A DNA stretch of 55,766 nucleotides from an uncultured Planctomycetaceae bacterium (GCA_964433865.1 CAYSUC010000001.1:1-55766), one strand, 5' to 3'. Shown: positions 1,414 through 41,133, counted from the stretch's first letter. Translations and numbers: made by a program. Notes: a model not told the origin generated them from the sequence alone.

Positions 1414-1590
1414 ACCGGAGTTTCGCTCATGCCGGAAGGAATGCAAATCGGCCGCGGGTGCCGCCGACGGGGACCTCGTCCGGTCGTCGCGATCGTCACA
1501 TTCGGAACTCGCCGCGCCACGGGCGACCTATGCTTTCCGGTGGTCGTGCCGCGCCCCTCGTGTCCGCCTTTTCGATCGTCCGCTTTCGCC

Positions 1591-3021
1591 ATGAACGAAC
1601 TCGTCGCTCCGGCGCTGCTCGTCGGCCTCGTTTGGGGCGCGGTGTTCGTGTTGCGCGGATCGATCGTCGTCGGCGGGTTGTCGGTGCTGCTGGCGTCGTG
1701 TTGCTTCGGCTACTTCTTCGTCCACTTCGCGCTCGGCCCGCTGCCGATGACGATCGATCGGCTGCTGCTCGGGCTGCTGATCGCCGCCTACGTCGTGCAG
1801 CGCGCGCTGCGGCGGACCGAGCCGAAACCGATGCACGCGGCCGACTGGCTGACCGCGGCGCTGGTCGGCTACTTGCTCTTGAACATGCTGTCGAGCGATT
1901 GGCGGACCGTTCAGAAGGGAGACATCTCGCCGTTGTGGCGCTGGTTCGGCGGTTACTGCGCGCCGCTGGTGCTGTACTGGGGAGCGAAGCAGGCGCCCTG
2001 GACCGAGCGGACGTCGAACCTCGTGCTGACGTGCCTCACCGCGTTCGGTCTGTATCTGGCCGTCACCGCACTCTGCGAGATCGCGCATCTGTGGGCCTTC
2101 GTCTTCCCGTCGTACATCGCCGATCCGAAGGTCGGGCTGCACTTCGGACGGGCCCGGGGACCGATGGTTCACGGCGTCAGTTACGGTCATTATCAGGGCG
2201 TGTGTTTGCTGGCCGCGTGGCTCGCGGCTTGGCGACTACGCGGAGTCGCGCGGGCCTCGATCGTCGGCCTGTTGCCCTTGTTCGCCGCGGGGGTGTACTT
2301 CAGCTACACGCGCAGCGTGTGGATGGGGGCGGGTTTGGGGCTGTGCACGCTCTTCTGCACCACGCTCCGCGGACGCACGCGCAGTCTCGTGCTCGGCGGC
2401 GTGGCGGCCGCGGCGCTGGTCGTCGGCGCGACGCAGATGGAAAAGATCGTCGGCTTCCAACGCGAGCAATCGGCCGCCGACACCGCCGACTCGGCCAACC
2501 TCCGCGTCAGTTTCGCCTACGTCTCGTGGCTGATGTTTCAAGACCGACCGCTGGTGGGCTTCGGCTTCGGACGGTTTCCCGGCGACAAACTGCCGTACCT
2601 CGCCGATCGGTCGTCGGAACTGCATCTCGAAGCGCTCCGCCCGTACGTGCATCACAATACGTTCCTCAGCCTGCTCGTCGACACCGGCCTCGTCGGCCTG
2701 GGATTGTTTCTGGCGATGCTCGGGGCCTGGATCGCGCAGGCCTGGCGAACCTACGCGGCGGCCGGCGCGCCCGATTGGGCCCGACGTCAAGCGATCTTGC
2801 TGCTCGGCGCCGTCGGCGTGTACGCCCCGCAACTGCTGTTTCACGAGTTGAGCTATACGCTGGTCGACAACGCGCTGGTGTTCTTTCTGGCCGGCGCCTC
2901 CTCGGCCGCGGCCGCCGGCCGATCGGCGATGGTCCGTCCCGGGCGAGCCGAAGTCGTAAGTCCCCGGAGCGTCGAAGCGTCGTACGCGGTTCGAGCCGCG
3001 ACCGTTCTCGCACCCACGTAG
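1591..3021 (+). CDS. O-antigen ligase / Wzy_C family polytopic membrane protein
   Basis: ATG 1591 gives MNELVAPALLVGLVW.. There are many hydrophobic helices, and the block FSYTRSVWMGAGLGL followed by a large loop is typical of WaaL/ExoQ-like proteins. The track start at 1168 overlaps the divergent gene, so it is unlikely. Confidence 0.7.
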   Translation: MNELVAPALLVGLVWGAVFVLRGSIVVGGLSVLLASCCFGYFFVHFALGPLPMTIDRLLLGLLIAAYVVQRALRRTEPKPMHAADWLTAALVGYLLLNMLSSDWRTVQKGDISPLWRWFGGYCAPLVLYWGAKQAPWTERTSNLVLTCLTAFGLYLAVTALCEIAHLWAFVFPSYIADPKVGLHFGRARGPMVHGVSYGHYQGVCLLAAWLAAWRLRGVARASIVGLLPLFAAGVYFSYTRSVWMGAGLGLCTLFCTTLRGRTRSLVLGGVAAAALVVGATQMEKIVGFQREQSAADTADSANLRVSFAYVSWLMFQDRPLVGFGFGRFPGDKLPYLADRSSELHLEALRPYVHHNTFLSLLVDTGLVGLGLFLAMLGAWIAQAWRTYAAAGAPDWARRQAILLLGAVGVYAPQLLFHELSYTLVDNALVFFLAGASSAAAAGRSAMVRPGRAEVVSPRSVEASYAVRAATVLAPT

Positions 3022-3042
3022 GGCTTCGCCACGGCACACGAC

Positions 3043-3102
3043 GGGAGGGCGAAGCTCCGCTGAGGCGGCGTCGGATCGGCTCGGCCGGAGCTTCGCCCTC
3101 CC
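3043..3102. repeat. REP-A palindromic intergenic element (short copy)
   Basis: Inverted repeat: gggagggcgaagctccg ... cggagcttcgccctccc. It contains ggctcggccggag, the reverse complement of the ctccggccgagcc core also seen at 19379 and 19463. Confidence 0.7.
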
Positions 3103-3151
3103 TTGGTTTCGGTTCGGCCCGCGACGCGCTCGACTTGCTATATTGCACCGC

Positions 3152-4390
3152 ATGAATCATCTGTGCATCGCTTTCGATCGGCTGCATGCGGGCTATCTGG
3201 GTTGCTTCGGCAACACCTGGATCGCGACGCCGGCCTTCGACCGCTTCGCCGCCGACGCCTTGTTGTTTCCTCAGGCGCACGTCGACGCGACCGATGCGGC
3301 CGAGGCGTACGATTCGCTGTGGCGCGGCACGCATCGTCTGGAACGTTTGCTGCGGCCGCACGATCCGTCTCGGCCCACGCTCGCCGAGGCGGCCCGGGCG
3401 GCGGGATTGCACACGTTGCTGGTGACCGACGATCCGTCGGTCGGCGGCCATGCGGCCGGCGCGGCGTTCGACGACGCGCTGATTCTCGAAGCGCCGGAAG
3501 ACGAAGTCGCGGCGGCCGCAGGCGTCGACGAGACGCACACGGCGCGGTTCTTCGCCGCCGCGATCGACCGGCTGGGCGACGTTCCGGAACCGTTCTTCGC
3601 TTGGATCCATGCGCGGTCGTTGGCCGGCGCGTGGGACGCCCCGTCGGAGTTTCGCGATCGGTACGTGGAAGAAGACGATCCGCCGGCGCCGACGTTCACG
3701 CGGCTCGAACGGCGCGAGTTGCCGGCCGACGTCGACCTCGACGAGCGCTTCGGCCTGTCGCAGGCGTACGCCGCGCAGGTCGCGCTGCTCGACGTTTGCC
3801 TGGGCGGCTTGCTCGAACATCTCGACGAGCGCGGACTCGACGAGCGGACGAACGTCGGCCTGCTGTCGATTCGCGGACTGGCGCTGGGCGAACACTCGGC
3901 CGTGGGTCCGTGGGACGATCGTCTACATGCCGAGACGGTCCGCGTGCCGTGGCTGTTGCGGCCCGCCGATCGTCGCATCGCCCGCTGTCGCTCGCAGGCG
4001 CTCGTGCAACCGGCCGATTGGTACGCCGCGTGGATCGAACTCGTGAGCGGCCGGGCCGACCCGGGTCGATATTGGAGTCGGAGCGTGCTGCCGGCGACGA
4101 CCGGCGCGACTTCGCAACGACGCGATCGGGCCGTCGTCGTCGGCCGCACCGAGACCGGCCTCGCCGTTCCCGGCTGGTATCTGCGCCGTTGCGGCGAGCG
4201 CGACGGCGCCGGCGACGCGCTGTACGTCAAGCCCGACGATTTTTGGGAAGCCAACGACGTCGCGGCCCGCTGCGCCGACGTCGCCGAGAACTTACGGGCG
4301 TTGGACGACGCCGTCCGCCGGGCCGTCGCCGACGGCTTCGATCCGCCGCCGCTGGCGGACGACGACGTGCTGGTGGTCGGCGCCGGCTAG
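3152..4390 (+). CDS. sulfatase-fold (alkaline-phosphatase superfamily) protein, apparently degenerate active site
   Basis: ATG 3152 (the track TTG is at 3143). Sulfatase-like blocks are present: FDRLHAGYLGCFGNTWIATPAFDRFA, PFFAWIHARS, and YAAQVALLDVCLGGLLEHLDERGLDERTNVGLLSIRGLALGEHS..ETVRVPWLLR. I could not find a C/S-x-P-x-R nucleophile motif, and the usual SDHG reads SIRG. Confidence 0.55.
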   Translation: MNHLCIAFDRLHAGYLGCFGNTWIATPAFDRFAADALLFPQAHVDATDAAEAYDSLWRGTHRLERLLRPHDPSRPTLAEAARAAGLHTLLVTDDPSVGGHAAGAAFDDALILEAPEDEVAAAAGVDETHTARFFAAAIDRLGDVPEPFFAWIHARSLAGAWDAPSEFRDRYVEEDDPPAPTFTRLERRELPADVDLDERFGLSQAYAAQVALLDVCLGGLLEHLDERGLDERTNVGLLSIRGLALGEHSAVGPWDDRLHAETVRVPWLLRPADRRIARCRSQALVQPADWYAAWIELVSGRADPGRYWSRSVLPATTGATSQRRDRAVVVGRTETGLAVPGWYLRRCGERDGAGDALYVKPDDFWEANDVAARCADVAENLRALDDAVRRAVADGFDPPPLADDDVLVVGAG

Positions 4391-4588
4391 CGCTGCGCCA
4401 CGTCGATTCGTTCGCGAAAGTTGCCGCGCTTCGCCGTCGAACCTCTTCGTACGAGAAATTCCTCAGGGAATCCTCGCACGATTCACAGGCGCCGCCCGTG
4501 GTGCGTTCGCCGGGGGTGAATATGATGGGGGCTTTCGGGCCGCGACGTTCGTGCGGCCTTCGTCGTCGCTTTCGGGAAGTCCGTCGCC

Positions 4589-5497
4589 ATGTCGTCGATC
4601 GTCGCCGAGCCTCGGTTCGTGAACTCCGTCGCGGTGCGTCGCGATTTGCTGCGCCGCTTCATGGCCGATGCGCCGTTTCAGCCGGCTACGAATCTGTGGC
4701 GCGCGGTGGAGTTGCCGGTGTTGGCGTCGGTGTTGCCGGCGACCGGGCGCGGGCTCGACGTCGGCTGCGGCGACGGCGTGCTGACTCGGCTGCTGCGCGA
4801 CCTCGCGGGGGCCTCGTGGACGTTGGTCGGCGTCGATCCCGATCCGCATGAGACCGCCGCGGCCAAGTCGGCCGGCATCTACGCGGCCGTCCACACGACC
4901 GGCGCCGACGCCGTTGCCGAGGCCGACGCCTCGTTCGACTTCGCCTTCTCGAACAGCGTGCTGGAACACATTCCGGATCTCGCGCCGTGCTTGGTGGAAA
5001 CGGCCCGGTTGTTGAAACCCGGCGGGTCGTTTTTCGCCACGGTTCCGGCCGCCGGTTTGCACTCGCTGATGGCCGGACCCGGCTGGACGCGTCGCATTTC
5101 GCGCGAGGCGTACTTGGCGGAAACCGACCGACGGATCGCACACTTGCGTTATCCGACGGTCCACCGGTGGCGCGGCCTGTTGAACGACGCGGGCCTGGAG
5201 TTGGTCGCCGTGCGGAGTTACCTTTCGGCGCGGCAGGTGCGCCGCTGGGAGACGTGGGCCAACTGGACGGGCGGGTTGCTGTATCGGTTGCAAGGAGCGC
5301 GGCGGCCGCCGATTCAGATCCAGCGGAGCTTGGGCCTGCGCCGGGCGATGCCGCGGCCGTTTCGCTGGTTGGCGACTCCGGCGGCGTTCTTCGCCGGATC
5401 GGGCGTGTTGGCCGACGAACCCGTCGTGCCGGCCGCGGGCGAAGAATCGGCGGCCGATCGGGGCGGGGGCCTGCTGTTCGAGGCCCGCCGTCGTTAA
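4589..5497 (+). CDS. class I SAM-dependent methyltransferase
   Basis: Motif I is GLDVGCGDGVLTRLL. The blocks FDFAFSNSVLEHI and LLKPGGSFF are also present. Confidence 0.75.
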   Translation: MSSIVAEPRFVNSVAVRRDLLRRFMADAPFQPATNLWRAVELPVLASVLPATGRGLDVGCGDGVLTRLLRDLAGASWTLVGVDPDPHETAAAKSAGIYAAVHTTGADAVAEADASFDFAFSNSVLEHIPDLAPCLVETARLLKPGGSFFATVPAAGLHSLMAGPGWTRRISREAYLAETDRRIAHLRYPTVHRWRGLLNDAGLELVAVRSYLSARQVRRWETWANWTGGLLYRLQGARRPPIQIQRSLGLRRAMPRPFRWLATPAAFFAGSGVLADEPVVPAAGEESAADRGGGLLFEARRR

Positions 5498-5561
5498 CTC
5501 GCCCGTTCGACGCACGGTCTCAGGCCCCGCCGAGGCGCCCCGCGCGAGCCCGCCGCATCGC

Positions 5562-5600
5562 GATCTGCACCTGCTCGATCTGCACCTGTTCGATCGGCAG
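5562..5600. repeat. 15-nt tandem direct repeat (2.6 copies)
   Basis: The copies read gatctgcacctgctc / gatctgcacctgttc / gatcggcag. The repeat lies about 90 nt from the 3' end of the tRNA. Confidence 0.6.
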
Positions 5601-5688
5601 CCCGACGGCTGTGGGAACAGCGACACCGTGGCAAGAGCGACACATTCACAGGACTTACGAGGTCGTCGTGAGTCCTTTCGTATCAAAG

Positions 5689-5771
5689 TACCGGAGGTGG
5701 GACTTGAACCCACACTATCTTGCGATAACTGGATTTTGAGTCCAGCGCGTCTGCCATTCCGCCACTCCGGC
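5689..5771 (-). tRNA. tRNA-Leu (anticodon CAA), long variable arm, no encoded CCA
   Basis: The reverse complement is GCCGGAGTGGCGGAATGGCAGACGCGCTGGACTCAAAATCCAGTTATCGCAAGATAGTGTGGGTTCAAGTCCCACCTCCGGTA. The acceptor stem is GCCGGAG/CTCCGGT (G1-U72). The anticodon stem is CTGGA/TCCAG with loop CT-CAA-AA. The variable arm is TATC/GATA and the T arm is GTGGG-TTCAAGT-CCCAC. Confidence 0.9.
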
Positions 5772-6705
5772 GCGGGCGTTCGGTCCGGCCGGGGCGGGAC
5801 CGCACATGCGGGCGTTCCCCGCAGACTTCTTAGTCTAGCATTTTCCCGAGAATTGCAACCCGCCGCGCAGGCGATTTCCCAAGGCCGCTCAAACATTGAG
5901 GATGCCGAGTCGGTTGCCGCGAGGAGTTTCGGCTCGGAAGGCGCTTTCTCGGCGGGGCGGCAGTCGCGGCTAGGTCGAGGGTGCGGAGCAAGTTCACGAT
6001 GCCCTCGTGCAGACAACTCGGGGCTTGCGGTGCGGTTCCGCAAATGCGGCCACCGCCGTCGACCACACGCGGTTCGCCGATCGTCACCAGGGTCTCGACC
6101 TTCGCCTGACCGGCGTCGAACCGGTTCGCGTGGTCAACGAACTGCCGGCGTGACGCCGTTCGGCGCCCTGCGGCGGCTCGCGCGCCGCCGACGCCTCGGC
6201 CGATTCCGTTGCAACGAATTAACGTGTTTATCCATCAAGAGTTAATTCATTGCATTGCATTGCATACACACCCCGGATCGCCGGCCCGACCGCGCCGGCC
6301 GCGGCTTGGGTAGTCGCCGCAATCGACGATCGGCTAGGGCTTTACAACGCCGGCCGAAAATCGCTTTGACAAATCCCCCCGGGCGCGGCACACTCCCCCT
6401 TCGCACGGCGGCGGTTTCCGAATCGAGTGTATTTCACCGCGACTCGCGGAGTTCTCGATTCGCAAATCCGCGGCGCGCCGCCGGCGCCAGAAGGTCTTCG
6501 TTCGCCCGACGGGGGTTTTCCATGAATCGCTTGACGACGTTTCTCGATCGCTACTTCGCCGTTTCGCCACAAGCCTTCCACTTGCGAGCCCGCTCTCGGC
6601 GATTCACCCTCTCTCAGGCTCCAATCGCTACTCTGCGAGGATCGAGCCCGATCTTGGCGATCATCCGCGCTTCGGTCCTACATCCATCGAAGGGAACACA
6701 GTTCC

Positions 6706-7518
6706 ATGCGCGACTGCTCCTTAGATTTGCTGCGATCTTACGGTGATTCCGTCGAATCTGCGGGAAAGCGTACCCGTGGAACTGTGTTGATTCTTACCGT
6801 GGCGTGCGTGCTCGGGTTGGCCGGGTTTCTGAATTCGTTCAAGCACGGCTGGATGCGACAGCGCATCGCCGCGGTTACGAATAAATCGAGTGACTATGTC
6901 AGCACGACACTCAAACTCGATCCTAGTGGATCCCCGAGAAATAGCGAAGAATACAAGGCCTTCGTCCAGAGCATCATCCGATCGTATGTCGAAAACTCGT
7001 TTTCGATTACGGTGCCGTTTTTCGGAGCGACTTTCGACGTGAACGACCTCGGACTGCTGGTGGGGATCGGTTTGACGATCATCTTGCTGATGCTGTGGTA
7101 TGGCTTGAAGTCGGAGAGAAGAGCGCTGGTCCTCGGATTCAGATACGCCAAACGGCACGATCTACTCGAGCCGTTTTACGCGATTCAAGCGGGCCGGCAA
7201 GTATTGGTCACGCCTCCGATCCAAGGCCGAACGAAACATGGTCCGACCAAGCTGGTGGCGATCGTTGCGAGGTTCTTTATCCAACTATTTCCCGCAATGG
7301 TGTACACGCTGATCGCGGTCAACGATTTTTATACGTCCGATATCGGCAATGCGATCAGTCCGACGCATACGAAAATCGTGATCGCCTACACTGCCGTGCT
7401 CTGGGTGGCGATTATTTGGGTCGGCCTACTCTGCTGGATGGAATGGCTGGCGATCGATCGAATTTGGGAAAAGCGCAACCCGTGGCCTGCTGAACGCGAT
7501 GACGAAGACGATGCTTGA
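6706..7518 (+). CDS. hypothetical 4-TM membrane protein (low-GC island)
   Basis: ATG 6706 is preceded by gaagggaa. There are four hydrophobic segments: VLILTVACVLGLAGFL, LLVGIGLTIILLMLWYGL, FFIQLFPAMVYTLIAV and IAYTAVLWVAIIWVGLLCW, plus an acidic tail. GC is about 52% by hand count. No family recognised. Confidence 0.6.
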   Translation: MRDCSLDLLRSYGDSVESAGKRTRGTVLILTVACVLGLAGFLNSFKHGWMRQRIAAVTNKSSDYVSTTLKLDPSGSPRNSEEYKAFVQSIIRSYVENSFSITVPFFGATFDVNDLGLLVGIGLTIILLMLWYGLKSERRALVLGFRYAKRHDLLEPFYAIQAGRQVLVTPPIQGRTKHGPTKLVAIVARFFIQLFPAMVYTLIAVNDFYTSDIGNAISPTHTKIVIAYTAVLWVAIIWVGLLCWMEWLAIDRIWEKRNPWPAERDDEDDA

Positions 7519-7764
7519 GTATTCGAAGTGTGAGGAGGAGCCACCGCCGCGGGGGCGATTCGGGTCACGGTCGAGCCGGCCTCTAACCGCAGTCCCGACG
7601 CCGTCGACGACGACTACGAACTGACGATCGGCCACGACGACGCGAGGGGCTACGTCGATTGGGGTTGGCTCCGCGACCAGTTCGTTCTGAGCAACGATAC
7701 CGACCCGGACGCGGGACAGACGCTGTCGGTAAGCCGGTGGGACGCGCCGACGTACGGCGAGTGG

Positions 7765-10296
7765 TTGTCCGCCGGCGAAAGCCGGTCGTACGCGTATGAA
7801 GCGAGCGACGGCCACGGCGGCAGCGACACGGCCACCCTGCGGGTCCGCGTGGTCCGCCCGAACCAAAGCCCCACGGCCCGCGACGACGTGAACGAGGTGC
7901 AGTTCGGCCGCGACGAATCGGGACGGTTCGTCGACCTGGGCTCGTACGCGCCGTCGACCGAGAACGACGAGGACCCGGACGGCGACGAACTATCGATCAC
8001 CGGCACGGGCGCCCCGAGCGGCCAGTCGTGGCTGGCGGCCGGGGCCGAACTGTTCTACCGCTACTTCCTCAGCGACGGCCACGGCGGCACGGCCGAAGCC
8101 CGCGTCGTCGTCCGCGGTTGGCCGGCGCCGAACGAGGACCCGGTAACGCAGGACGATGAGTACACGGTGCTTCCCTACGGGACGACGAACAACCTGGGGA
8201 GCGTGAAGGACAACGATCGCGATCCGGAAGGAGATCCGCTGTCGGTCCGAGCCGGCACGATCAGCACGACGGGCGGCGGCAGCGTGAGCATGAGCGCCGA
8301 CGGCACGTTCAGCTACGCGCCGAGTCCCGGGGAACTGAATCGGCAGTTCAGCGACTCGTTCGAGTACGTGCTGGAAGACGACCGCGGCGGCACGGCCGCC
8401 GGCCGCGTGACGCTGACCACGCCGCCGTTGCCGTCGGTGACGATCGCCGCCGTCGACGCGGACGCTTACGAAGGGATCGCGAACACGAGCTACTATCCGG
8501 TCGCGGGCCGTTTCACCGTGACCCGCAGCGGCGACCAGACCGACGCGCTGACCGTGACGTACTCGATCGGCGGCAGCGCGACGAACTATTACGACTATCG
8601 GCTGCTGTCGCGGACCGTGGTCATCGAGGCGGGCCGAGCGACGGCCGATGTCGTGATCGATCCGGTGAGCGACGGCCTGGACGAAGGAGACGAGACGGTC
8701 GAACTCGTCATCTCCGAGAGTGAAGCATATCAGCGCGGCGCCGAATGCCAGGCGACGGTCGTGATTCACGATCCGCCGAGCCTGACGGCGCCGGCCGACC
8801 AAACGCACCGCGAAGGCTCGCGCCCCACGCTGCAACTGACGGCGCAGAACCTCCGCGGCGGCGAGCGGTACGTCGTGACGGGCCTTCCGAGCGGCCTGAA
8901 CGTCGATGGGGCGAGCGGTCTGATCTCGGGCAAGATCGCGTACGATGCGTACGACCAAATGCCGTCCGGCGGCTACGGCATCACGGCCTACCTGCAAGAC
9001 GCCGCAGGCAACGTGCTGAGCACGGTGAACTTCCGGTGGAACGTCCTCAACGCCGCGATCGGGCGGTTGGTAGGTCGCGAGTTTCATCCGGCCGTCGGCG
9101 ACGATCCTCAGGGCTTCACCAGCAACTGGCAGTACGCCCAAGGCCTTACTTGGTCGCCGATCTACGTGTCGCCGCTCAATACCGTAAGACTCTCGGTCGG
9201 CGGCGTCGACGTGCCTCCGGATTACGCGGACATCTTATGGCAAGCGACCGAACAGGCGCACGGTGATTTCACGAACCCGGACGAAGCCGAGGTCGAACTC
9301 TACGCAGGCGTCGTGATCCAGGTGATCGCCGGCATCGATCTGAATCTGAACGGCGCGCTCGATGCGAACGAGCACACGCATTCCTTGTCGCTGCATCGCA
9401 TCAACTTCGACGGTGTAACGTTTACGTCGCGCCGAACGTCATCGTATGCGCCGGAAAGCACGGGCTTCGCGATTCGCGAGGACGAATTGTTCGAGGTCGA
9501 CGGAGAATTCGAATTCGAGGTTCAAGCGGGTCCGACATCGGTGATGGGTGACCCCAGCCTGATTCGAGCCGCCGTTTGGGACGCCGCGTCGAACTCTACG
9601 CTTTCCGACGACAACGATCCGACATTCAATTACGTCACGAACGTGGTGTCGACCTACCTTCGTACGCGCGTGTACGCCGATGCGAACGACAACCACCGTT
9701 ATGACGCAGGCGAGCTGTACGAAGACTCGGAGCGGTTCACGGTTATGCCGCGCAAGGAGTACTCGTTCGGCCTGTGGTGGTCGAGCGCCTTAGCGGCGGA
9801 TCCGTCGGTCCGAATCGAGGGCTGGATGGACTACGGCACGCGGATTTGTCTGACGCGCGACGACGTCGACGACTGGCGCGCGCCGGTGCTGTTCTCGTTG
9901 AACACCGATTCCTTTATGTTCACCGCAGGCGGTACGAGCGGTTGGGGACCGTGGAGCCACATGACGCCCGATCCGGTGATGACCTACGACGATGCGCTCG
10001 AACTCTTCGCCGCTGCACCGCAGTGGACTATTATCGCCGTCGGCAGTATGCAAGGCCTTCAGGCGCGAGGCATAGCGGAAGGGATCGATGGCTTTCCGTG
10101 GATCAACGAAATCATCATCGATATGAGCACCGCGCGCGATGAGACGCTTGCACACGAAATCGGACACCTTTCGGGATTGGCGCACGAGGACGCTCCGTCC
10201 AACGACCACATCATGCGCGACGGGACGCTTCGCAATCCCGGCGCCTCGAAGCTGACGAAACAGAATGCCTATGAATATGCCGAGCGGCTCCTCTGA
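7765..10296 (+). CDS. cadherin-like repeat / Calx-beta / Ig-like protein with C-terminal metzincin domain; probable 5'-truncated module (repeat homology open from 7534)
   Basis: Repeats read ..NDTDPDAGQTLSV.., ..NDEDPDGDELSI.. and ..NDRDPEGDPLSV.. A Calx-beta-like block is VTIAAVDADAYEG...DETVELVI. An Ig-like block is GLPSGLNVDGASGLISG. The extreme C-terminus reads TLAHEIGHLSGLAHEDAPSNDHIMRDG (HExxHxxGxxH plus a Met-turn). There is no signal peptide. The first canonical start is TTG 7765, but the repeat sequence is in frame from 7534. Confidence 0.7.
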   Translation: MSAGESRSYAYEASDGHGGSDTATLRVRVVRPNQSPTARDDVNEVQFGRDESGRFVDLGSYAPSTENDEDPDGDELSITGTGAPSGQSWLAAGAELFYRYFLSDGHGGTAEARVVVRGWPAPNEDPVTQDDEYTVLPYGTTNNLGSVKDNDRDPEGDPLSVRAGTISTTGGGSVSMSADGTFSYAPSPGELNRQFSDSFEYVLEDDRGGTAAGRVTLTTPPLPSVTIAAVDADAYEGIANTSYYPVAGRFTVTRSGDQTDALTVTYSIGGSATNYYDYRLLSRTVVIEAGRATADVVIDPVSDGLDEGDETVELVISESEAYQRGAECQATVVIHDPPSLTAPADQTHREGSRPTLQLTAQNLRGGERYVVTGLPSGLNVDGASGLISGKIAYDAYDQMPSGGYGITAYLQDAAGNVLSTVNFRWNVLNAAIGRLVGREFHPAVGDDPQGFTSNWQYAQGLTWSPIYVSPLNTVRLSVGGVDVPPDYADILWQATEQAHGDFTNPDEAEVELYAGVVIQVIAGIDLNLNGALDANEHTHSLSLHRINFDGVTFTSRRTSSYAPESTGFAIREDELFEVDGEFEFEVQAGPTSVMGDPSLIRAAVWDAASNSTLSDDNDPTFNYVTNVVSTYLRTRVYADANDNHRYDAGELYEDSERFTVMPRKEYSFGLWWSSALAADPSVRIEGWMDYGTRICLTRDDVDDWRAPVLFSLNTDSFMFTAGGTSGWGPWSHMTPDPVMTYDDALELFAAAPQWTIIAVGSMQGLQARGIAEGIDGFPWINEIIIDMSTARDETLAHEIGHLSGLAHEDAPSNDHIMRDGTLRNPGASKLTKQNAYEYAERLL

Positions 10297-10300
10297 AAAT

Positions 10301-10858
10301 ATGCGATTTCCGTTACCGGCCGGATGGAGCTCGTTTGTGTATCGCAGACGCTGGATTGCGGTCGTTGCGGCCGTCTATGCTTTGATTTGCGTCGTCGTCC
10401 CGGTGTTTGTCCGTCCGATGCCGACCGTTCCCGTCGACTCGATGTTCGGAGGATCGCGCGGGGGGTGCGGGAATCTGACGGCGTATCGCTTTAGTGAAGA
10501 CCGGCATATGGCGATCGTATTCGACTTGAACGACTATAAGGTGGAAAACGGCATCGTGCAGACTTTCTCCGTTGGTCCGCCGAAGGGGCAGTCTGCAATC
10601 CATGTCTACGAACTTGCGTCGCGCGACTATCGATTTTGCGACGACGTGCTTCCTCGCGATCCGCCGAAATACACGTGGAAGGCGACCGCCGGAAACGCGG
10701 AAGTGAGATACTTGCGGGACGGAAATACTGCTACCGGTTCGTTCTACGTCCGTGTGCGATTACGCGATGTCAACCTCACGAATACAAAGACGGGCGCCAT
10801 GGCGCATCTAAAGAGTGTCGATATCGAGGAGGTTATGGTAGGCTGGCTGAGCGGCTAG
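10301..10858 (+). CDS. hypothetical N-terminally anchored protein, paralog 1 (candidate immunity protein)
   Basis: ATG 10301 lies 5 nt after the upstream stop. There is one N-terminal helix (WIAVVAAVYALICVVVPVF). By hand alignment it is homologous to the next ORF. Low GC. Confidence 0.6.
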   Translation: MRFPLPAGWSSFVYRRRWIAVVAAVYALICVVVPVFVRPMPTVPVDSMFGGSRGGCGNLTAYRFSEDRHMAIVFDLNDYKVENGIVQTFSVGPPKGQSAIHVYELASRDYRFCDDVLPRDPPKYTWKATAGNAEVRYLRDGNTATGSFYVRVRLRDVNLTNTKTGAMAHLKSVDIEEVMVGWLSG

Positions 10859-10887
10859 ACGCATCGAGACACGAGGCGAGTTGCGTC

Positions 10888-11514
10888 ATGGTGGCATTTC
10901 CGACGATCGTCGGTGTCCGGACGTTACGATGGTTGCGAATCGGCGTCGTCTTCGCGTCGGGTTGCGCGGTCGGAGTGGGCGTTTGTTGGTATCGCGCTCT
11001 ACCGCGACACGTCGATCTCATCATGCCGACGGCGGCAATGTTCGAGCAGAAGCCCCGCGGAATCGGAACATTTGGAGCTTGCCGTTTCAGTCAACAGGGA
11101 AACGTGGTGTTCTACGTGTATTGGGAGAACGACTTAGCCAGGCTCCCCGACGGCGCGACGACGGTCGAGATCGCAGACCGTCCGCGGGCCTTGAGTGTTC
11201 AGGTCCTGCAATTCGACAGACCTTCGTGGGATTATTTCTACGACGACGTCGTCGACGGCGTGCCGCGGATCGTCGCAACCTGGCGCGCCATCGAAGGCCG
11301 GGTGACAATCAACAAAGAGCGCCGCGCCACCCAAGAAACCACACATCGCCTCAGTTTCGCCCTGCGCGGCGTTCGCATCGTCTGCGAAAGGGCGAATGCC
11401 GAAATCGTATTGGGAGACCTCGACCTCAAGGACGTCGATGCGGGACGTCGGCGAGAGGGTGCCCTCGACGACACCGAACCGCTGGCGACCGTGTCCGTCG
11501 CCGCTTCTCCCTAA
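10888..11514 (+). CDS. hypothetical N-terminally anchored protein, paralog 2 (candidate immunity protein)
   Basis: ATG 10888. The N-terminal helix is LRIGVVFASGCAVGVGVCW. It shares these blocks with 10301-10858: MPT..MF, (Y/C)RFS, DY..DDV, TW(K/R)A..G..V, and LR.V...L...D...V..G. Confidence 0.6.
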   Translation: MVAFPTIVGVRTLRWLRIGVVFASGCAVGVGVCWYRALPRHVDLIMPTAAMFEQKPRGIGTFGACRFSQQGNVVFYVYWENDLARLPDGATTVEIADRPRALSVQVLQFDRPSWDYFYDDVVDGVPRIVATWRAIEGRVTINKERRATQETTHRLSFALRGVRIVCERANAEIVLGDLDLKDVDAGRRREGALDDTEPLATVSVAASP

Positions 11515-11553
11515 AAAATCGACGGACGTCGATCCGGCAGCGACGAAGGTCGC

Positions 11554-13482
11554 GTGACGTTCATCGTGCATCCGAACCCGATCGCCGGTCCGAACGAGTA
11601 CACGGCCTACACGAACGAGCCGCTCGAGGTGCAACCCCGCGGCGTGCTGGGGAACGACGAGGACCCGGAAGACCCGACGGGGGATTCGCTGACGGTCGAC
11701 GCGCAGTCGAACCTGCGGACGGACCACGGGTATGTGAACCTCCGCGCCGGCGGCGGTTTCACCTACACGCCCGACCACGACTACTACGGCCCGGACGGCT
11801 TCGAGTACGTGGTCCGCAACGCCTACGGTCAGGCGACGGGTCGGGTGACGATCGACGTGGTGCGGACCTGGGCCGAGCCGGACAAGTATGCGATGCTGAA
11901 GGGGACGACGCTGGCGGTGGGCCCGGATCGGGCGTTGGTGCGGAACGACTGGGGCGAATGGCACCACCTGCGGATCGTCACCGGCCCGACGCAAGGGCAA
12001 CTGTCGGACTTCGACGACGTCGAGGGTACGTTCACGTACCAGTCGGACGTCGACACCGAGGAGCCCGACTTCTTCACCTACGCCCTGGTGCGAGCAGACG
12101 GCACCGAAGCGGCGTATACGACGGCGACGATTACTCCCAAGCGCGCTAAACTTAATTCGGTTTGGGGCATCCTGAAATCTCATGCAGGCACGAGCCTGCT
12201 GAACGATAACGGAGTAACGCAGGACGATGCCTGGATCGATCGCAACGGCGACGGCACGGACGATCCCGGAGACGTGCGCAACGCGTTCGTTACGACTCGG
12301 AACACGCAACTGAAGCTGAAACCGACCGTCACGTTGGACGACTTCGATCCGGAAAGAGACGTCTGGATTCGCGGCAACGGCAGCGGCCAGGTACGTCACG
12401 ATCTGCACGTCGTGCGGGCCGTCTTCGATCCGGTGAAACTCAATGACTTGGGTAACGGCCGTTACGGCTTCGCCCCGACGGACTTGGATGGTGCCGAAAC
12501 CACCGGCTCCTTCAGCGAGTCGGCGGGAATCGTAGACGATCTCGTCGTCGATTGGGAAGTCTCCGTCGATGGCGGACAGTCCTGGGCAAAGGCCGGTACC
12601 AGCGCCAATCGGGTGTACGTTTCGTGGGCCACGGCTCCGGCTTCGATTTTGGGCCTGCCGCTGTACGAGACGTTGTTGTCGCTCGGATGTACGGCCGCTG
12701 GAGGCGTCGGCGATGATGCAGCCGCGATCCAAGCGATCGCGGAAAGTCTCTCCGATCAGTTCGAGACGCAAAGCGTCGTTCGCCTCAGCGACGGGGCGGC
12801 GCTGAAATACTATGCCTCGTGGAACGCGACGTCGCAGTCGACCGCGGATCTGCTTCGTTCCACGGATGGTCGATGCGGATCGTTCGCTCGGATCTTCATC
12901 GATACCTTGCGGCTGCAAGGGATCGCGGATGCGCACCTCACGGAAGTTCGCGCTACGGACGCCGTTGCCGTGAGTGGACCGGAGGAGTATTCCCATTGGA
13001 TGCTGATCAACGATTGGACGTTCAGCGCCGTCGGCAGTTCAGGAGGCGCGTCGGACGGCTACACGCACGAGTTCGTCTTCGAAAAGGGCTTCAATCCGAA
13101 CACCTACCTGCACACGTCGTTTGAAATCATTCGCGGCGACGGCGCCGATCAATCGGGCATCGCCGGGCACGGAGGGGTCGCGAATCCCAAATCGAACCAC
13201 AACAACCATGCGCTCGTGCACATGGTGTTCGGGGGCGTCGAGCGCTGGTACGATCCCAGCTACGGTCGTGCCTATAACAGTCAGGCCGAGTTCGAGGAGC
13301 AGGCGCTCGCCGGCGTGTACCGCTGGGACCAGAAGAGCTTTCAAGAATCGTCCATAAGTCGCGACTTCGACGAAGACGGGGAAATCGAAATCGGCGTCGA
13401 AGCGCTGCTGAACGTGTGGTACGTGAAGCCGAAACGGGATCATCAGGCCGAACTGTTGACCGTATTTACGGACATTTCCTAG
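11554..13482 (+). CDS. cadherin-like repeat protein with C-terminal transglutaminase/papain-like Cys-His-Asp domain; probable 5'-truncated module
   Basis: GTG 11554 lies inside the repeat-junction motif (DEGR)VTFIVHPNPIAGPNEY. Repeat blocks include VLGNDEDPEDPTGDSLTV and GRVTIDVV. The C-terminal core reads DGRCGSFARIFIDTLRLQGI ... NHALVHMVFGGVERWYDPSYG. There is no signal peptide. Confidence 0.7.
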   Translation: MTFIVHPNPIAGPNEYTAYTNEPLEVQPRGVLGNDEDPEDPTGDSLTVDAQSNLRTDHGYVNLRAGGGFTYTPDHDYYGPDGFEYVVRNAYGQATGRVTIDVVRTWAEPDKYAMLKGTTLAVGPDRALVRNDWGEWHHLRIVTGPTQGQLSDFDDVEGTFTYQSDVDTEEPDFFTYALVRADGTEAAYTTATITPKRAKLNSVWGILKSHAGTSLLNDNGVTQDDAWIDRNGDGTDDPGDVRNAFVTTRNTQLKLKPTVTLDDFDPERDVWIRGNGSGQVRHDLHVVRAVFDPVKLNDLGNGRYGFAPTDLDGAETTGSFSESAGIVDDLVVDWEVSVDGGQSWAKAGTSANRVYVSWATAPASILGLPLYETLLSLGCTAAGGVGDDAAAIQAIAESLSDQFETQSVVRLSDGAALKYYASWNATSQSTADLLRSTDGRCGSFARIFIDTLRLQGIADAHLTEVRATDAVAVSGPEEYSHWMLINDWTFSAVGSSGGASDGYTHEFVFEKGFNPNTYLHTSFEIIRGDGADQSGIAGHGGVANPKSNHNNHALVHMVFGGVERWYDPSYGRAYNSQAEFEEQALAGVYRWDQKSFQESSISRDFDEDGEIEIGVEALLNVWYVKPKRDHQAELLTVFTDIS

Positions 13483-13559
13483 CCGTAAATGCCACGTGCC
13501 TCGAACTGATGAGAAAGGGCGTTCGGTATTCGTCTTGCCGACGATCGAAGGAACGTAAG

Positions 13560-14876
13560 ATGGCTCGATGCTTCCCCGTATTATGGATCACGTTAGGAAC
13601 CGCCGCGGTATGTGCGGGTTCGTCGGCCGCTGCCGAGACGTTCGACATGCGTCGGGCGATGTATGACCTGCGCGCGGTCTACCTGGATACGACATCGATC
13701 TACGTCTACGGTTATCGCGAAGAAAATCCGTATTCACGACGCATTATTCGCGCGGTAACGGAATGGTCCGTTGACGAGCCTCACTATAAGCACGAATGGC
13801 TGGATGGGAGCACATTCGGTGGGCACGGTGTACACGAAAAACCGTTTCCCAGTAGATTAAAGTACGACGGTGTTTGGGTATGGGAATCCGGAGCGCGAGA
13901 TTCGATGGGGTTCAGACGCTTGTGTCCGGCATTTGACTGTACACGCAACGACGTTCGCCGGTTTACAGACACCGGCCGATTCGACCAGATTCCGAAACCG
14001 CAATGGGGTGTGCCGCGGCCCGACTTCGGACGCGATCGACTTCTCGATTCCGTATACGGACTCTCCGGCCCTAAAGTGGAAGGCGTGGGGACATGGCTTC
14101 TTCCGCTCTACAATTCCTACTTGTTGGACTACGAACTCACACCCCGCGGGTATTGGGATGAAACCCGAAAAAGAGCCGTCGACCACGCGAAGGGCGACAT
14201 GCTCCGTTGCGCGCGCAGCGCGGCCTATGATTTCGTTCCCCTATCGGCGCAGAAGTACCGGTTGTTTTTCATTTCCGAGCCGGTCGGACGCCGGCGCCTG
14301 ATACTTCCCCCGACGTCGCAGCGAACGGCCTTCGTATTGGATTATGAATTTCACGATGCGTTCGACGCCAAGGCCCCATCGCCGAAACACTATTGGAACA
14401 ACTCGCTGACTTTGGCCGAGCAATTTCCCGTCGATTTCGTCACGCCGTTCCACTGCTACCCGCGTGACGGGGCGTACTTTTTCGTGCTGGATTCGGGCGA
14501 ATTGTACGGCACCACGGCGGCCGTCGCCGATCGGACTTCGCGGCGTCTGCCGCTGCGCGACGGCGAATTGATTCAGACCGTGATCACCGATCTCGATCGC
14601 AGCGGCGCCGCCTTCGCCTTCACGTCGAAGTATTGGTTCGAGGTGCGGGAGCCGATCGAGTATCGGCAGTTCGAACTGGGTCCGCTGAAGACGGACGACC
14701 CGCTGCCGACCTTGGTCCGCGCGGCCCGCGAGATCCGCAAGTTCTACCCCGCGATTCCGAAGCAAGACGCCCCCGCGAACGCCGCCGCACCGCCGGCCCC
14801 GCCGCCGTTGAGCAGCGGCAGGGCAACAAGGAGCCATGAACTCCCGGAACACTCATGGTGCCCCACCGTCAGATAA
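13560..14876 (+). CDS. hypothetical secreted protein (signal peptide), low GC
   Basis: ATG 13560 follows gaaggaa. The product starts MARCFPVLWITLGTAAVCAGSSAAAETF (Sec signal). It is 438 aa with a Pro/Ala-rich tail. No family recognised. Confidence 0.6.
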   Translation: MARCFPVLWITLGTAAVCAGSSAAAETFDMRRAMYDLRAVYLDTTSIYVYGYREENPYSRRIIRAVTEWSVDEPHYKHEWLDGSTFGGHGVHEKPFPSRLKYDGVWVWESGARDSMGFRRLCPAFDCTRNDVRRFTDTGRFDQIPKPQWGVPRPDFGRDRLLDSVYGLSGPKVEGVGTWLLPLYNSYLLDYELTPRGYWDETRKRAVDHAKGDMLRCARSAAYDFVPLSAQKYRLFFISEPVGRRRLILPPTSQRTAFVLDYEFHDAFDAKAPSPKHYWNNSLTLAEQFPVDFVTPFHCYPRDGAYFFVLDSGELYGTTAAVADRTSRRLPLRDGELIQTVITDLDRSGAAFAFTSKYWFEVREPIEYRQFELGPLKTDDPLPTLVRAAREIRKFYPAIPKQDAPANAAAPPAPPPLSSGRATRSHELPEHSWCPTVR

Positions 14877-14880
14877 TGCT

Positions 14881-15480
14881 TCATTCGGCGTCGGCTGGCG
14901 GAGACCACTTTTCGATCTTCGGCCCCCGCCAGTTACCGAAGAACATGTAACTGCCGCTCGCAACAAGCCCGGTGAAGGTCACGAGCAAATACCAATTTGG
15001 CTCGATACGGAATGCGACAAGGTACAAGAGAACCAAGAGACCGGCAAGGAACCCGAGGGACGCGACGCCGAGCTTGATAATATCCATTAGCCCCTTGCGT
15101 TTTGCCTCCTTCAAGTCATGTTCCATGTCTTTCGCTCTTCGGATAGCAGTGTCGGCCTGTTGCGCGAACCGGGCCGCTTCCGCTCTTAGCGACTCAAGCT
15201 CCTCGGTATTGACTGCGTTATAAGACGCGCCAAGTTTCGTTTCGCTAATGATCTTGTCGCAAATACCGGACAGTGAAAGAACCAGCGGCTTAAAGTCGTC
15301 GAAGTATTCCAGCTGGCCGCCGGAATTCTCTGCTACGAAACGGGTTTTAAATTCACCATCTTCCCAAACCCAGACCTCCCACAGGTCGAGCGTCAGGAAG
15401 CGAGTCGGGGTATAGGCTTTCACGACCGACCCCTCGTTTTGGGACCTCACAAAGTTCTTAATGTCGCTCTTGGTCGCCAC
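14881..15480 (-). CDS. hypothetical protein: soluble N-domain, coiled coil, two C-terminal TM helices
   Basis: GTG 15480 is preceded by gggagagg. GC is about 47% by hand count. The coiled-coil segment is EELESLRAEAARFAQQADTAIRRAKDMEHDLKEAKRK. The TM helices are LGVASLGFLAGLLVLLYLVAF and WYLLVTFTGLVASGSYMFF. It is convergent with 13560-14876, with a 4-nt gap. Confidence 0.6.
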   Translation of the reverse strand: MATKSDIKNFVRSQNEGSVVKAYTPTRFLTLDLWEVWVWEDGEFKTRFVAENSGGQLEYFDDFKPLVLSLSGICDKIISETKLGASYNAVNTEELESLRAEAARFAQQADTAIRRAKDMEHDLKEAKRKGLMDIIKLGVASLGFLAGLLVLLYLVAFRIEPNWYLLVTFTGLVASGSYMFFGNWRGPKIEKWSPPADAE

Positions 15481-15722
15481 CTAAACCTCTCCCGTGTTAA
15501 CGCGGAACTTGTGACTCCGTCGATCCCGTCGACATCAACACCCTAGGAAGTCGGCGCGCCGATGTAAAGCGAAACGTTACCGGACGGTGCGGCGCCTCGG
15601 AACCTAGCGTTCAACGCACCGCGGGCTTCGTGTCGTGATGCGCCGAAGCACGACTTCGGTCCGTGCGCGCGGCGTGTGCGCTTTGGCGCCGAGCGGCGGC
15701 GCCGTTGCTTGCGGGCCCCTCC

Positions 15723-15746
15723 GGTCGCTGACGCTCCCGGCTCGCC
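15723..15746. repeat. REP-B half-site
   Basis: ggtcgctgacgctcccggctcgcc nearly matches the right arm of the 41044-41133 palindrome (cgtcgctgacgctccgggctcgcc). cccggctcgcc recurs at about 15769. Confidence 0.5.
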
Positions 15747-15821
15747 TTGCGCATTGGTCGCCTTCGTTCCCGGCTCGCCGTTCGATTCGTTCGGCCGGCC
15801 TGTCGGCGCTGCGACCGACGT

Positions 15822-17036
15822 TTACTCCGCGGCGAAGGCGTAGACGCACGTCTGTTTGTACGTGGCGCCGGGCTTAAGAACGACCGATGGAAAACTCGGC
15901 TGGTTCACCGAGTCGGGAAAGTGTTGCGTCTCCAGGCAGACGGCGCTCCGCGGCGCGTACGTCTTTCCCCCTTTGCCCGTCTGCCCATTGAGATGGTTCC
16001 CCGAGTAGAGTTGCACGCCGGGCTGGTTCGTGAACACGCTCAGCACGCGGCCGCTGGTCGGGTCCTTCAGCTTCGCCGCGAACGTGGCCTGCTCTTCGCG
16101 CTTGCTCAACACGAAGTTGTGGTCGTAGCCCGTCGTCGGCGTCGCCACCTGCTCGATCCGATCGCCGATCCGCGCGGGCTTGGTGAAGTCGAGCGGCGTT
16201 CCGGCGACCGGTTCGATCTTGCCCGTGGGAATCAGCGTCTCGTCGACCGGCGTGTAGTCCGCGGCCGACAGCGTCAGTTCATGATCGAGGGCCGTCGCGG
16301 CGCCCGCGCCGGCCAAGTTGAAGTAGCTGTGGTTCGTCAGGTTGATCGGCGTCGCCTTGTCGGTCGTCGCTTGGTACTCGATCCACAATGCATCCTGATC
16401 GGAAAGCGTGAACGTCACGCCGGCTTGCACCGTGCCCGGATAGCCTTCTTCGCCGTCGGGACTGACGACGCTGAACCGTACGCCGGCCAAGATGCTGTTG
16501 CCCCGCGCGGTGACGATCTTCTCGGCGGTCCAAATCAGTTTGTCGAAGCTTCGCAGTTTGCCGCCGTGCAAATGGTTCGGCTCGCTGTTGATTTCGAGTT
16601 GATAGGGCTGTCCGTCGAGCGTGAAGCGTCCTTTGGCGATGCGATTGCAGACCCGCCCCGTGGTGCATCCGAAATACTGATTCGCCGCCGACTCGTACCC
16701 GGCGACGTTGTCGAAACCCAACACGACGTCGGCCAGGTTGCCTTGCCGATCGGGCGCGAGAATTTCGGTGATCGTGGCGCCGCGGTTCATCACCTTCACC
16801 GTCACCTTGCTCCCCACCAGCGTGTAGGTTTCCACCGGTTGACCGTCGACGGTGGCGCCGAACGGGTGCGGGCCGGAGACTTCCGCGCCGCCGGCAGGCG
16901 CGCCGATCGAACAGGCCACGGGAATCATCAGCAACCAGCTTCGAAGGAACGTCGAACCTTGAGGGGGACGGACGGCACGGGCAGGCACGGGGTGGAACAT
17001 CGGGGGCGACTCCGGGGGCGAACTCTGCGGATGCAT
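15822..17036 (-). CDS. galM: aldose 1-epimerase (galactose mutarotase), exported
   Basis: Family blocks are GFDNVAGYESAANQYFGCTTGRVCNRIAKGRFTLDGQPYQLEINSEPNHLHGG and ..TNHSYFNL.. An N-terminal signal-like segment is FLRSWLLMIPVACSIGAPAGG. An alternative ATG is at 17000. Confidence 0.85.
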   Translation of the reverse strand: MHPQSSPPESPPMFHPVPARAVRPPQGSTFLRSWLLMIPVACSIGAPAGGAEVSGPHPFGATVDGQPVETYTLVGSKVTVKVMNRGATITEILAPDRQGNLADVVLGFDNVAGYESAANQYFGCTTGRVCNRIAKGRFTLDGQPYQLEINSEPNHLHGGKLRSFDKLIWTAEKIVTARGNSILAGVRFSVVSPDGEEGYPGTVQAGVTFTLSDQDALWIEYQATTDKATPINLTNHSYFNLAGAGAATALDHELTLSAADYTPVDETLIPTGKIEPVAGTPLDFTKPARIGDRIEQVATPTTGYDHNFVLSKREEQATFAAKLKDPTSGRVLSVFTNQPGVQLYSGNHLNGQTGKGGKTYAPRSAVCLETQHFPDSVNQPSFPSVVLKPGATYKQTCVYAFAAE

Positions 17037-41030: not shown

Positions 41031-41043
41031 CGACGACTGTGTA

Positions 41044-41133
41044 GGCGAGCCCGGAGCGTTAGCGACGGGAGGTCCTGCGTCGCAGTCGAAAACTCCCGTC
41101 GAAAAATCCCGTCGCTGACGCTCCGGGCTCGCC
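41044..41133. repeat. REP-B long palindrome between convergent genes
   Basis: The arms are ggcgagcccggagcgttagcgacggga (41044-41070) and tcccgtcgctgacgctccgggctcgcc (41107-41133). They are complementary at 26 of 27 positions. tcccgtcg is duplicated internally. Confidence 0.75.

Follow-up and report, generated by a model that had tools for sequence, protein, structure and literature searches.

Two 5'-truncated cadherin-like stalk genes with unrelated enzyme heads and putative partner genes in an uncultured Planctomycetaceae bacterium

We analyzed a 55,766-nt stretch of DNA from an uncultured Planctomycetaceae bacterium (GCA_964433865.1, CAYSUC010000001.1:1-55766; hereafter the window) and focused on a block of genes between a tRNA-Leu(CAA) gene and the aldose 1-epimerase gene galM. 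Two large genes of this block, B and E, have lost their 5' ends; each joins a remaining trunk fragment to an enzyme head unrelated to that of the other, and both are compositional chimeras. Tentatively, and with a confidence somewhat short of an even chance, we read the block from its sequence features as a strain-variable accessory locus, where two head-plus-partner modules sit on beheaded fragments of resident stalks of the Big_9/tandem-95 type and would represent effector-protector cassettes. Module 1 would consist of the ~410-aa C-terminal region of B, with its metzincin-type zinc site, and the paralogous membrane-anchored proteins C and D, and module 2 of the E head (beta-sandwich plus Cys-His-Asp core) and the signal-peptide protein F. 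Mechanistically, head and partner would move as a unit that recombination attaches to stalk genes, those at this locus would be displaced, orphan-like copies, and the exported partner would bind or neutralize an envelope-acting enzyme, as an immunity protein does with an effector or an inhibitor with its target. Use of such modules in antagonism between bacteria is possible. An initial annotation of the same DNA had proposed a low-GC orphan array of polymorphic-toxin and immunity cassettes. The features of the block are as follows (ORF, open reading frame; GC, guanine plus cytosine content; GC3, GC at third codon positions).

tRNA-Leu(CAA), 5688-5771, minus strand: left landmark, called by ARAGORN and by Rfam (RF00005, 60 bits)
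ORF-poor stretch, 5772-6705: ~930 nt, GC ~0.64-0.65
Gene A, 6706-7518, plus strand: 270 aa, four predicted transmembrane segments, no known family, GC3 0.66
Gene B trunk, 7534-9069, plus strand: ~3 Big_9/cadherin-like repeats, Calx-beta and He_PIG, GC3 0.87 (host-like)
Gene B C-terminal region, 9070-10296, plus strand: ~410 aa, GC3 0.75, zinc-site motif at its end
Gene C, 10265-10858, plus strand: 197 aa, or 185 aa from ATG 10301, one N-terminal transmembrane segment, GC3 0.67
Gene D, 10888-11514, plus strand: 208 aa, one N-terminal transmembrane segment, paralogue of C
Gene E trunk, 11515-12090, plus strand: Big_9 domain(s), GC3 0.89 (host-like)
Gene E head, 12091-13482, plus strand: beta-sandwich and predicted transglutaminase-like core, GC3 0.73
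Gene F, 13560-14876, plus strand: 438 aa, signal-peptide-like N-terminus, no Pfam family
Gene G, 14881-15480, minus strand: 199 aa, convergent, C-terminal transmembrane segments
galM (aldose 1-epimerase), 15822-17036, minus strand: right landmark, Pfam Aldose_epim (E 7e-95)

The boundaries given in the initial annotation, with ~930 nt of ORF-poor sequence by the tRNA gene on the left and galM on the right, were confirmed, as was its one convergent ORF (G); its seven same-strand ORFs reduce to six plausible genes (A-F). Both large genes open in the middle of a repeat. The B frame (Pfam domains Big_9/Cadherin_4/Cadherin_5, Calx-beta, and He_PIG) starts after a stop codon at 7531-7533, within a Big_9 repeat, and is intact over 920 codons; its first canonical start is TTG 7765, upstream of which the frame reads ...AIRVTVEPASNRSPDAVDDDYEL..., where the final strand of one repeat runs into the beginning of the following one. 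The E frame (Big_9/Cadherin_5) begins right after the TAA of D (11512-11514), reading ...GSDEGRVTFIVHPNPIAGPNEY... within what was the final strand of a lost repeat, and is intact over 655 codons. Candidate starts for E are GTG 11554, which is not conserved, and GTG 11629, which is conserved and lies within the domain. In five contigs of a relative with 93% identity, an in-frame TGA stands 8 codons upstream of E and GTG 11554 is replaced by GTA, so that GTG 11629 is the sole start candidate shared. Neither B nor E has a hydrophobic N-terminus or signal peptide, in agreement with the initial annotation. A, B, D, and E lie in one common reading frame, A and B being split by two TGA codons 12 nt apart (window 6706-7533) and D and E by the single TAA (window 10888-11556); read-through from D to E is seemingly not required, as the relatives lack most of D yet retain E.

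Base composition sets the heads apart from the trunks. In 500-nt windows, GC goes down to 0.53-0.62 in parts of 6500-15500 compared to 0.67-0.71 in the flanks, and the three 60-nt lines picked out in the initial annotation as low in GC (6720, 13680, and 15240) have values of 0.53, 0.45, and 0.45. The low-GC block that it described is a mosaic, however: low GC is patchy, with host-like values over the Big_9 parts of both large genes. The small genes and partners have a GC3 of 0.66-0.71, versus 0.836 +/- 0.022 in 15 flanking genes. We located the steps within the two large genes by a likelihood change-point on third-position GC with 500 permutations. The change point of B fell at nt 9070, the end of He_PIG (GC3 from 0.873 to 0.748; log-likelihood ratio 11.9, permutation maximum 8.3), and that of E at nt 12091, the stalk/head junction (GC3 from 0.891 to 0.730; log-likelihood ratio 11.2, permutation maximum 9.4), and for both genes the observed value was attained by 0 of 500 permutations. 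The lowered GC3 extends past the heads into the downstream genes. The same gradient was seen in other genomes: the E-head homologue P0020 has a GC3 of 0.64 in the stalk, 0.54 in the head, and 0.50 in the partner; for P0009, a homologue of B, the values are 0.83, 0.70, and 0.605, with 0.525 in its partner, and F-like paralogues on L012 have a GC3 of 0.68 versus 0.84-0.89 for neighbor genes.

The heads carry the different enzyme motifs reported initially. In B, HEIGHLSGLAH (10153-10185) agrees with the zinc site of adamalysin/reprolysin and matrixin enzymes, and HIM and a short C-terminal helix come after it. The zinc-binding consensus HExxHxxGxxH is kept in P0001, P0008, and P0009, which make up the single family found for this head (39-42% identity). 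Unlike in established metzincins, all matches of B are sub-threshold (E 0.03-0.17), including Pfam Reprolysin_2/5 (E 0.03) and an alignment of the zinc helix to ADAMTS-5 (E 0.17), and the Met of H-I-M is Val (H-I-V) in P0001 and P0009. An AlphaFold model (4-sequence alignment) of the C-terminal 415 aa of B reached a predicted local distance difference test score (pLDDT) of 30.7 and thus gives no fold evidence for the metzincin call. The C-terminus of B is a putative metzincin-type region, called from the HExxHxxGxxH consensus, the sub-threshold Reprolysin_2/5 matches, and the ADAMTS-5 zinc-helix match. P0009 (860 aa) is apparently full length: an N-terminal ...AAELLESRCMLSA... motif (LESRCMLSA) precedes an unknown domain, Calx-beta, He_PIG, and a ~420-aa B-type region ending in HEVGHLAGVRH, and the gene 3' of it is that of a 117-aa protein with an N-terminal anchor. 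In the protein collection, B and G are both singletons, and an exact look-up of the window's E protein by contig gave no record. A word-index protein search with the C-terminal 415 aa of B missed B's own cluster (P0171), which makes its one match a lower bound, and a metagenome scan with B gave domain-level matches only. Sequence and profile searches of the Protein Data Bank (PDB) with B, E, the B-family profile, and the F family returned nothing significant.

The E head could be characterized in more depth. Its motifs RCGSFARIF, NHALVHM, and WYDPSYG lie within 12868-13266, with catalytic codons for Cys at 12874, His at 13207, and Asp at 13252 (Cys249, His360, and Asp375 of a 65-sequence alignment; C441, H552, and D567 of the 642-aa protein). 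These three residues are invariant in 63 of 63 homologues, in all of which 45-84 residues separate the Asp from the C-terminus. AlphaFold modeling from the 65-sequence alignment (pLDDT 84.9, predicted template modeling score 0.86) gave two beta-sandwich units and, after them, an alpha/beta core, and a Foldseek search of the model against the PDB placed TG3, TG2, and factor XIII at the top, with E-values from 7e-5 and probabilities up to 1.0 at a template modeling score (TM-score) of only ~0.25. With these enzymes and the Pfam Transglut_core superfamily, the E head shares the order of a beta-sandwich and then a Cys-His-Asp core and the motifs G-x-C-G-x-F/W-A, N-H, and Y-D-P-S-Y-G; it differs in an identity of only 9-12%, the low TM-score, and a Pfam Transglut_core score of 17.3 bits (E 0.006), below the 23-bit cut-off. 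From motifs and model, the head is predicted to be a transglutaminase-like core with a Cys-His-Asp triad, which may act as a peptidase, an amidase, or a cross-linking enzyme, and its family is covered by no Pfam or NCBIfam model.

This family is large, with 1,446 cluster representatives at E<=1e-3 in an exhaustive HMMER search (a word-index search with the E head returned one cluster only). The head stands at the C-terminal end among the matches listed, in proteins of 276-2,135 aa. The stalks of 15 long homologues include Big_9/cadherin (five), fn3/dockerin, PKD/DUF11, and Big_2 domains, and CBM96 is also among the domains found beside E-type heads. Two proteins, P0031 and P0037, combine an N-terminal Pfam Transglut_core domain with a C-terminal E-type head. 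Near the N-terminus, ~26 of the 63 homologues show either an LE.R..L motif or, by crude criteria, a Sec-like signal. More specifically, LE[SDG]R..L after an Arg-rich stretch is present in P0009 (residues 40-56) and in 9 of 63 E-head homologues, otherwise without a classical signal peptide; judging from these sequences, from which the motif is known here, as we found no usable literature source for it, it is probably a planctomycete export signal.

The second recurring element is the gene that follows the head. A same-strand gene for a signal-peptide protein begins 2-78 nt after the stop codon of the head gene in 5 of 5 E-head contexts examined, with partners of 306-438 aa in four and of 224 aa, ended by the contig edge, in the fifth (L013). 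The partners were initially described as small membrane-anchored or signal-peptide proteins of no recognizable family; anchors, signals, and lack of family hold, whereas F, at 438 aa, is not small. A, C, D, F, and G had no match in Pfam, NCBIfam, or PADLOC, and C and D are paralogues with 27% identity. F has a homologue in the gene that follows P0020 (tblastn E 2e-5; hidden Markov model E 2e-8; hhalign probability 93.5%, E 2e-7), and the partners of P0014 and P0010 are related between themselves (E 8e-5). In F, the C-terminal ~70 aa (residues 328-400, window 14541-14759) are nearly invariant among paralogues that are ~30% identical elsewhere, with the pattern RRLPLRDGELxQ…AFAFTSKYWFEVxEPxEY…DDPLPTLVRAAREVR…, to which no known family or structure was matched. 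Two tandem F-like paralogues (P0162 and P0160; L012 8901-11155, a planctomycete-type contig) have no E-like head gene nearby, and F-like genes adjoin PSCyt2/PSD1/DUF1501 genes. Around the 2,135-aa P0020, whose called N-terminus is without evident signal, L014 (4500-5000; 12799-16408) also carries ~3 tandem copies of a repeated element upstream of the gene and, 3' of the partner, two transposase genes, beyond which a 3,498-aa cadherin-repeat gene begins.

Close relatives inform on how the locus varies and what is kept. Five independent assemblies of the 93% relative (L002, L007, L008, L010, and L011) have a common layout: they match window 11390-14791 at 93% identity, which covers the last 125 nt of D, E, and F; in the place of G, which is missing from 5 of 5 assemblies, they carry a 173-nt piece 83% identical to B 7681-7860 with a 7-nt deletion; and they continue with the sequence from window 15620 onwards, containing galM and two LuxR-type genes. 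With B and E opening in mid-repeat and a further trunk fragment after F in the relatives, the 5'-truncated orphan-cassette form described initially was borne out. Upstream of the homology break near 11390, each of the five assemblies runs on for only 53-138 nt; this sequence is identical among them and has no match in the window, and the shared end suggests that a repeat, a multi-copy element, or a polymorphic junction precedes E in that species. Between the window and L007, the synonymous substitution rate (dS) is 0.12-0.16 throughout, and the ratio of nonsynonymous to synonymous rates (dN/dS) is 0.17 for the E head, 0.39 for the E stalk, 0.32 for F, and 0.19 for galM. Together, the synteny and the even dS indicate that E and F were vertically inherited with their neighbors since the lineages split, and the ratios imply that E is kept by selection in its truncated form. 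Gene A had one relative of at least 90% identity, on a 1.2-kb Logan contig, and both A and D were found again in Logan assemblies. A scan of contigs from Genome Taxonomy Database (GTDB) species genomes with galM gave only relatives of 43-55% and thus no close genome, the best being a Planctomycetota metagenome-assembled genome (55%); this match, together with the PSCyt2/PSD1/DUF1501 genes beside F-like genes, makes a planctomycete source probable.

Around these genes, little else was recognized. tRNA-Leu(CAA) has the block on its 5' side. No gene (Pfam on ORFs), RNA (Rfam), or mobile-element remnant was recognized in 5772-6705, Pfam on the ORFs upstream of galM gave no match, and Rfam over 5000-16000 matched tRNA-Leu alone. 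No att-like repeat, integrase, or transposase was detected for the block. A promoter/terminator scan gave nothing exceeding shuffled expectation; PADLOC returned no defense-system match, and plasmid tblastn searches with A and G had no match. The left flank (244-5497) encodes a GNAT acetyltransferase, a Wzy_C/O-antigen-ligase-like membrane protein, a sulfatase, and a methyltransferase, so that the block adjoins a group of cell-envelope glycan genes. An N6/N4 DNA methylase gene and dnaA are on the same contig (36756-38759; 45059-46687), so that the replication origin may be no more than about 30 kb away from the locus. A short GC-rich element (~27-33 nt) forms a tandem pair upstream of galM (15718-15788) and recurs near 41.1 kb (41043-41133) in both orientations with 90-93% identity; it may be an intergenic repeat similar to repetitive extragenic palindromic (REP) elements.

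Several results weigh against reading the block as effector-protector cassettes. The trunks of B and E have 33% aa identity over ~114 aa, that is, one domain, and their fragments show no nucleotide similarity within the block or elsewhere in the contig, so far as sequence comparison can tell a likeness of shared domain-family membership only; of the shared trunk described initially, the Big_9/cadherin-type domains in both proteins remain. No main locus was found within the 55.8-kb contig. No polymorphic-toxin trafficking or pre-toxin domain was found in the block proteins (Pfam, NCBIfam) or in the 15 long homologues, 0 of 15 of which have RHS, PAAR, LXG, or TPS domains; nothing in the block matched any Tox-* Pfam model or Pfam toxin family, and no junction motif was found between trunks and heads. 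Among the partners, robust homology to F is limited to one extra context: the genes downstream of P0014 and P0010 (L013/L020) match the F family weakly and collinearly, not significantly (E 0.016), the gene after P0025 (L023) is unrelated to F, C and D are unrelated to the 117-aa partner of P0009, and the 438 aa of F are large for an immunity protein. E is without signal peptide or agreed start, yet under purifying selection. The low GC3 of heads and partners, finally, might come from expression level or from biased gene conversion between the repeats instead of transfer. As a conserved trunk, a trafficking domain, a match to a Pfam toxin family, and, within the contig, a main locus were not found, we rate the polymorphic-toxin interpretation of the initial annotation as partly supported; in its favor stand the truncated trunk-head fusions, the composition break at the junction, an E head with an F-family partner in a second distant genome, and the differences at the locus among the 93% relatives. 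Synteny in relatives and complete exported adhesins had been named initially as observations that would speak against it. The former was found in part, with E-F syntenic, vertically inherited, and under purifying selection; as to the latter, B and E are beheaded and without export signal, whereas full-length relatives appear to be secreted and of adhesin type, carrying Sec signals or LE.R..L.

Polymorphic toxins with orphan cassettes include Rhs, CdiA, and MafB, and computational predictions of polymorphic toxins in planctomycetes exist (Zhang et al. 2012, PMC3482391). Like those loci, the block has a trunk fragment, a variable C-terminal enzyme head, and a downstream gene in tandem, with lower-GC head and partner beside a host-like trunk, variation among close relatives, and peptidase- and transglutaminase-type heads, which are known toxin classes. 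Unlike them, it has no RHS, FilH, TPS, LXG, PAAR, or MafB-N domains and neither a junction motif nor a trunk that is conserved, the latter being here a cadherin-like Big_9 array, and its heads are large and come from families whose complete members resemble secreted adhesin-enzymes. To our knowledge, and as stated in the initial annotation, Planctomycetota hold no experimentally characterized polymorphic-toxin example, which nothing seen here contradicts. In Type VI secretion, the amidase effector Tse1, an enzyme of papain-like fold without signal peptide, is encoded beside its periplasmic immunity protein Tsi1, which has one. Similarly, the gene of the signal-less E enzyme adjoins that of the signal-peptide protein F; in contrast to Tse1-Tsi1, there are no Type VI secretion system genes in the window, complete family members use Sec-type signals, and F is unrelated to known immunity families. 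Planctomycetes also have giant cadherin-like/tandem-95 surface proteins with enzyme domains, e.g., in Stieleria varia (PMC7717043). The present proteins resemble these in their Big_9/cadherin/Calx-beta/He_PIG stalks with a terminal hydrolase domain and in homologues with an LE.R..L-type motif or Sec signal, and differ in that B and E are beheaded, short (~920 and ~655 codons), compositionally chimeric, and interleaved with genes for small membrane or exported proteins.

These surface proteins lead to another account, quite possible if on balance unlikely, in which B and E are broken 3' pieces of secreted adhesin-type enzymes, normal planctomycete surface proteins of a stalk and a matrixin-like or transglutaminase-like enzyme, for attachment or extracellular protein processing, and the downstream genes encode maturation, anchoring, or unrelated envelope proteins with no part in antagonism or immunity. 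It would fit the full-length relatives with export signals and adhesin-type domains (P0009, with LESRCMLSA, Calx-beta, and He_PIG), the E-head homologues that have Sec-like signals or LE.R..L and stalks of the Big_9, CBM96, dockerin, fn3, and PKD types, the giant cadherin/tandem-95 genes typical of planctomycetes, one of them annotated 'Matrixin' (PMC7717043), the lack of a toxin-family Pfam match, and the synteny of E-F with galM in relatives. Harder to reconcile with it are the purifying selection still acting on a truncated, signal-less E (head dN/dS 0.17) and composition steps that fall exactly at the stalk/head junctions, and simple decay does not predict the conserved adjacency of head and partner or the tandem partner paralogues that lack a head. 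The same selection on E argues for its expression as it stands, and so against the silence expected of a classical polymorphic-toxin orphan array, where B and E would be silent recombining cassettes of an exported full-length main gene elsewhere and C, D, and F immunity proteins. We consider such an array improbable: the order of trunk fragment, head, and downstream gene occurs twice, with a third trunk fragment after F in relatives, the composition breaks at the junction, and transglutaminase-like and HExxH peptidase domains are recognized toxin classes (PMC3482391), but the trunk fragments lack DNA similarity to each other or to the rest of the contig, neither junction motif nor trafficking domain was found, and the heads are multi-domain units of 400-450 aa and not short tips.

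Explanations that leave stalks and heads aside fare worse. It is very unlikely that the block is an assembly or binning chimera or a graveyard of dead pseudogenes, as might be suspected of a window that is a whole 55.8-kb draft contig and of a relative whose five metagenome assemblies break just upstream of E, since the order D 3' end-E-F-galM recurs in five independent assemblies, A and D were re-found in Logan assemblies, and the 920- and 655-codon frames are intact with low dN/dS. A tRNA-targeted mobile island (phage or integrative and conjugative element) or an anti-phage defense island would account for the adjoining tRNA gene, the lower GC, and the content that differs among relatives; with the block on the 5' side of the tRNA gene, no integrase, transposase, or att repeat, no directly repeated tRNA 3' end at the other edge of the block, no PADLOC match, and no plasmid match for A and G, we regard it as extremely improbable.

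Should B and E prove to be leftovers of common adhesin-enzymes, the locus would be a variable region of the usual kind. The effector-protector reading that we favor would extend the logic of polymorphic toxins to cadherin-like stalk proteins and to a phylum without a characterized example, and would give a first functional handle on the transglutaminase-like head, with its many representatives, and on the F-type partner, both of which are without a Pfam or NCBIfam model. It would also pose the puzzle of a beheaded, signal-less enzyme gene that is still held by selection. More broadly, and here we are doubtful, the locus might belong to an undescribed class of modular effectors in Planctomycetota and other phyla, in which Big_9 stalks would carry exchangeable C-terminal heads with cognate exported protectors of the F family, leaving behind orphan cassettes and head-less protector arrays, as a stalk-based analogue of Rhs and contact-dependent inhibition (CDI) systems. 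Within such a class, the commonest head would be the unnamed transglutaminase-like family, with its >1,400 clusters.

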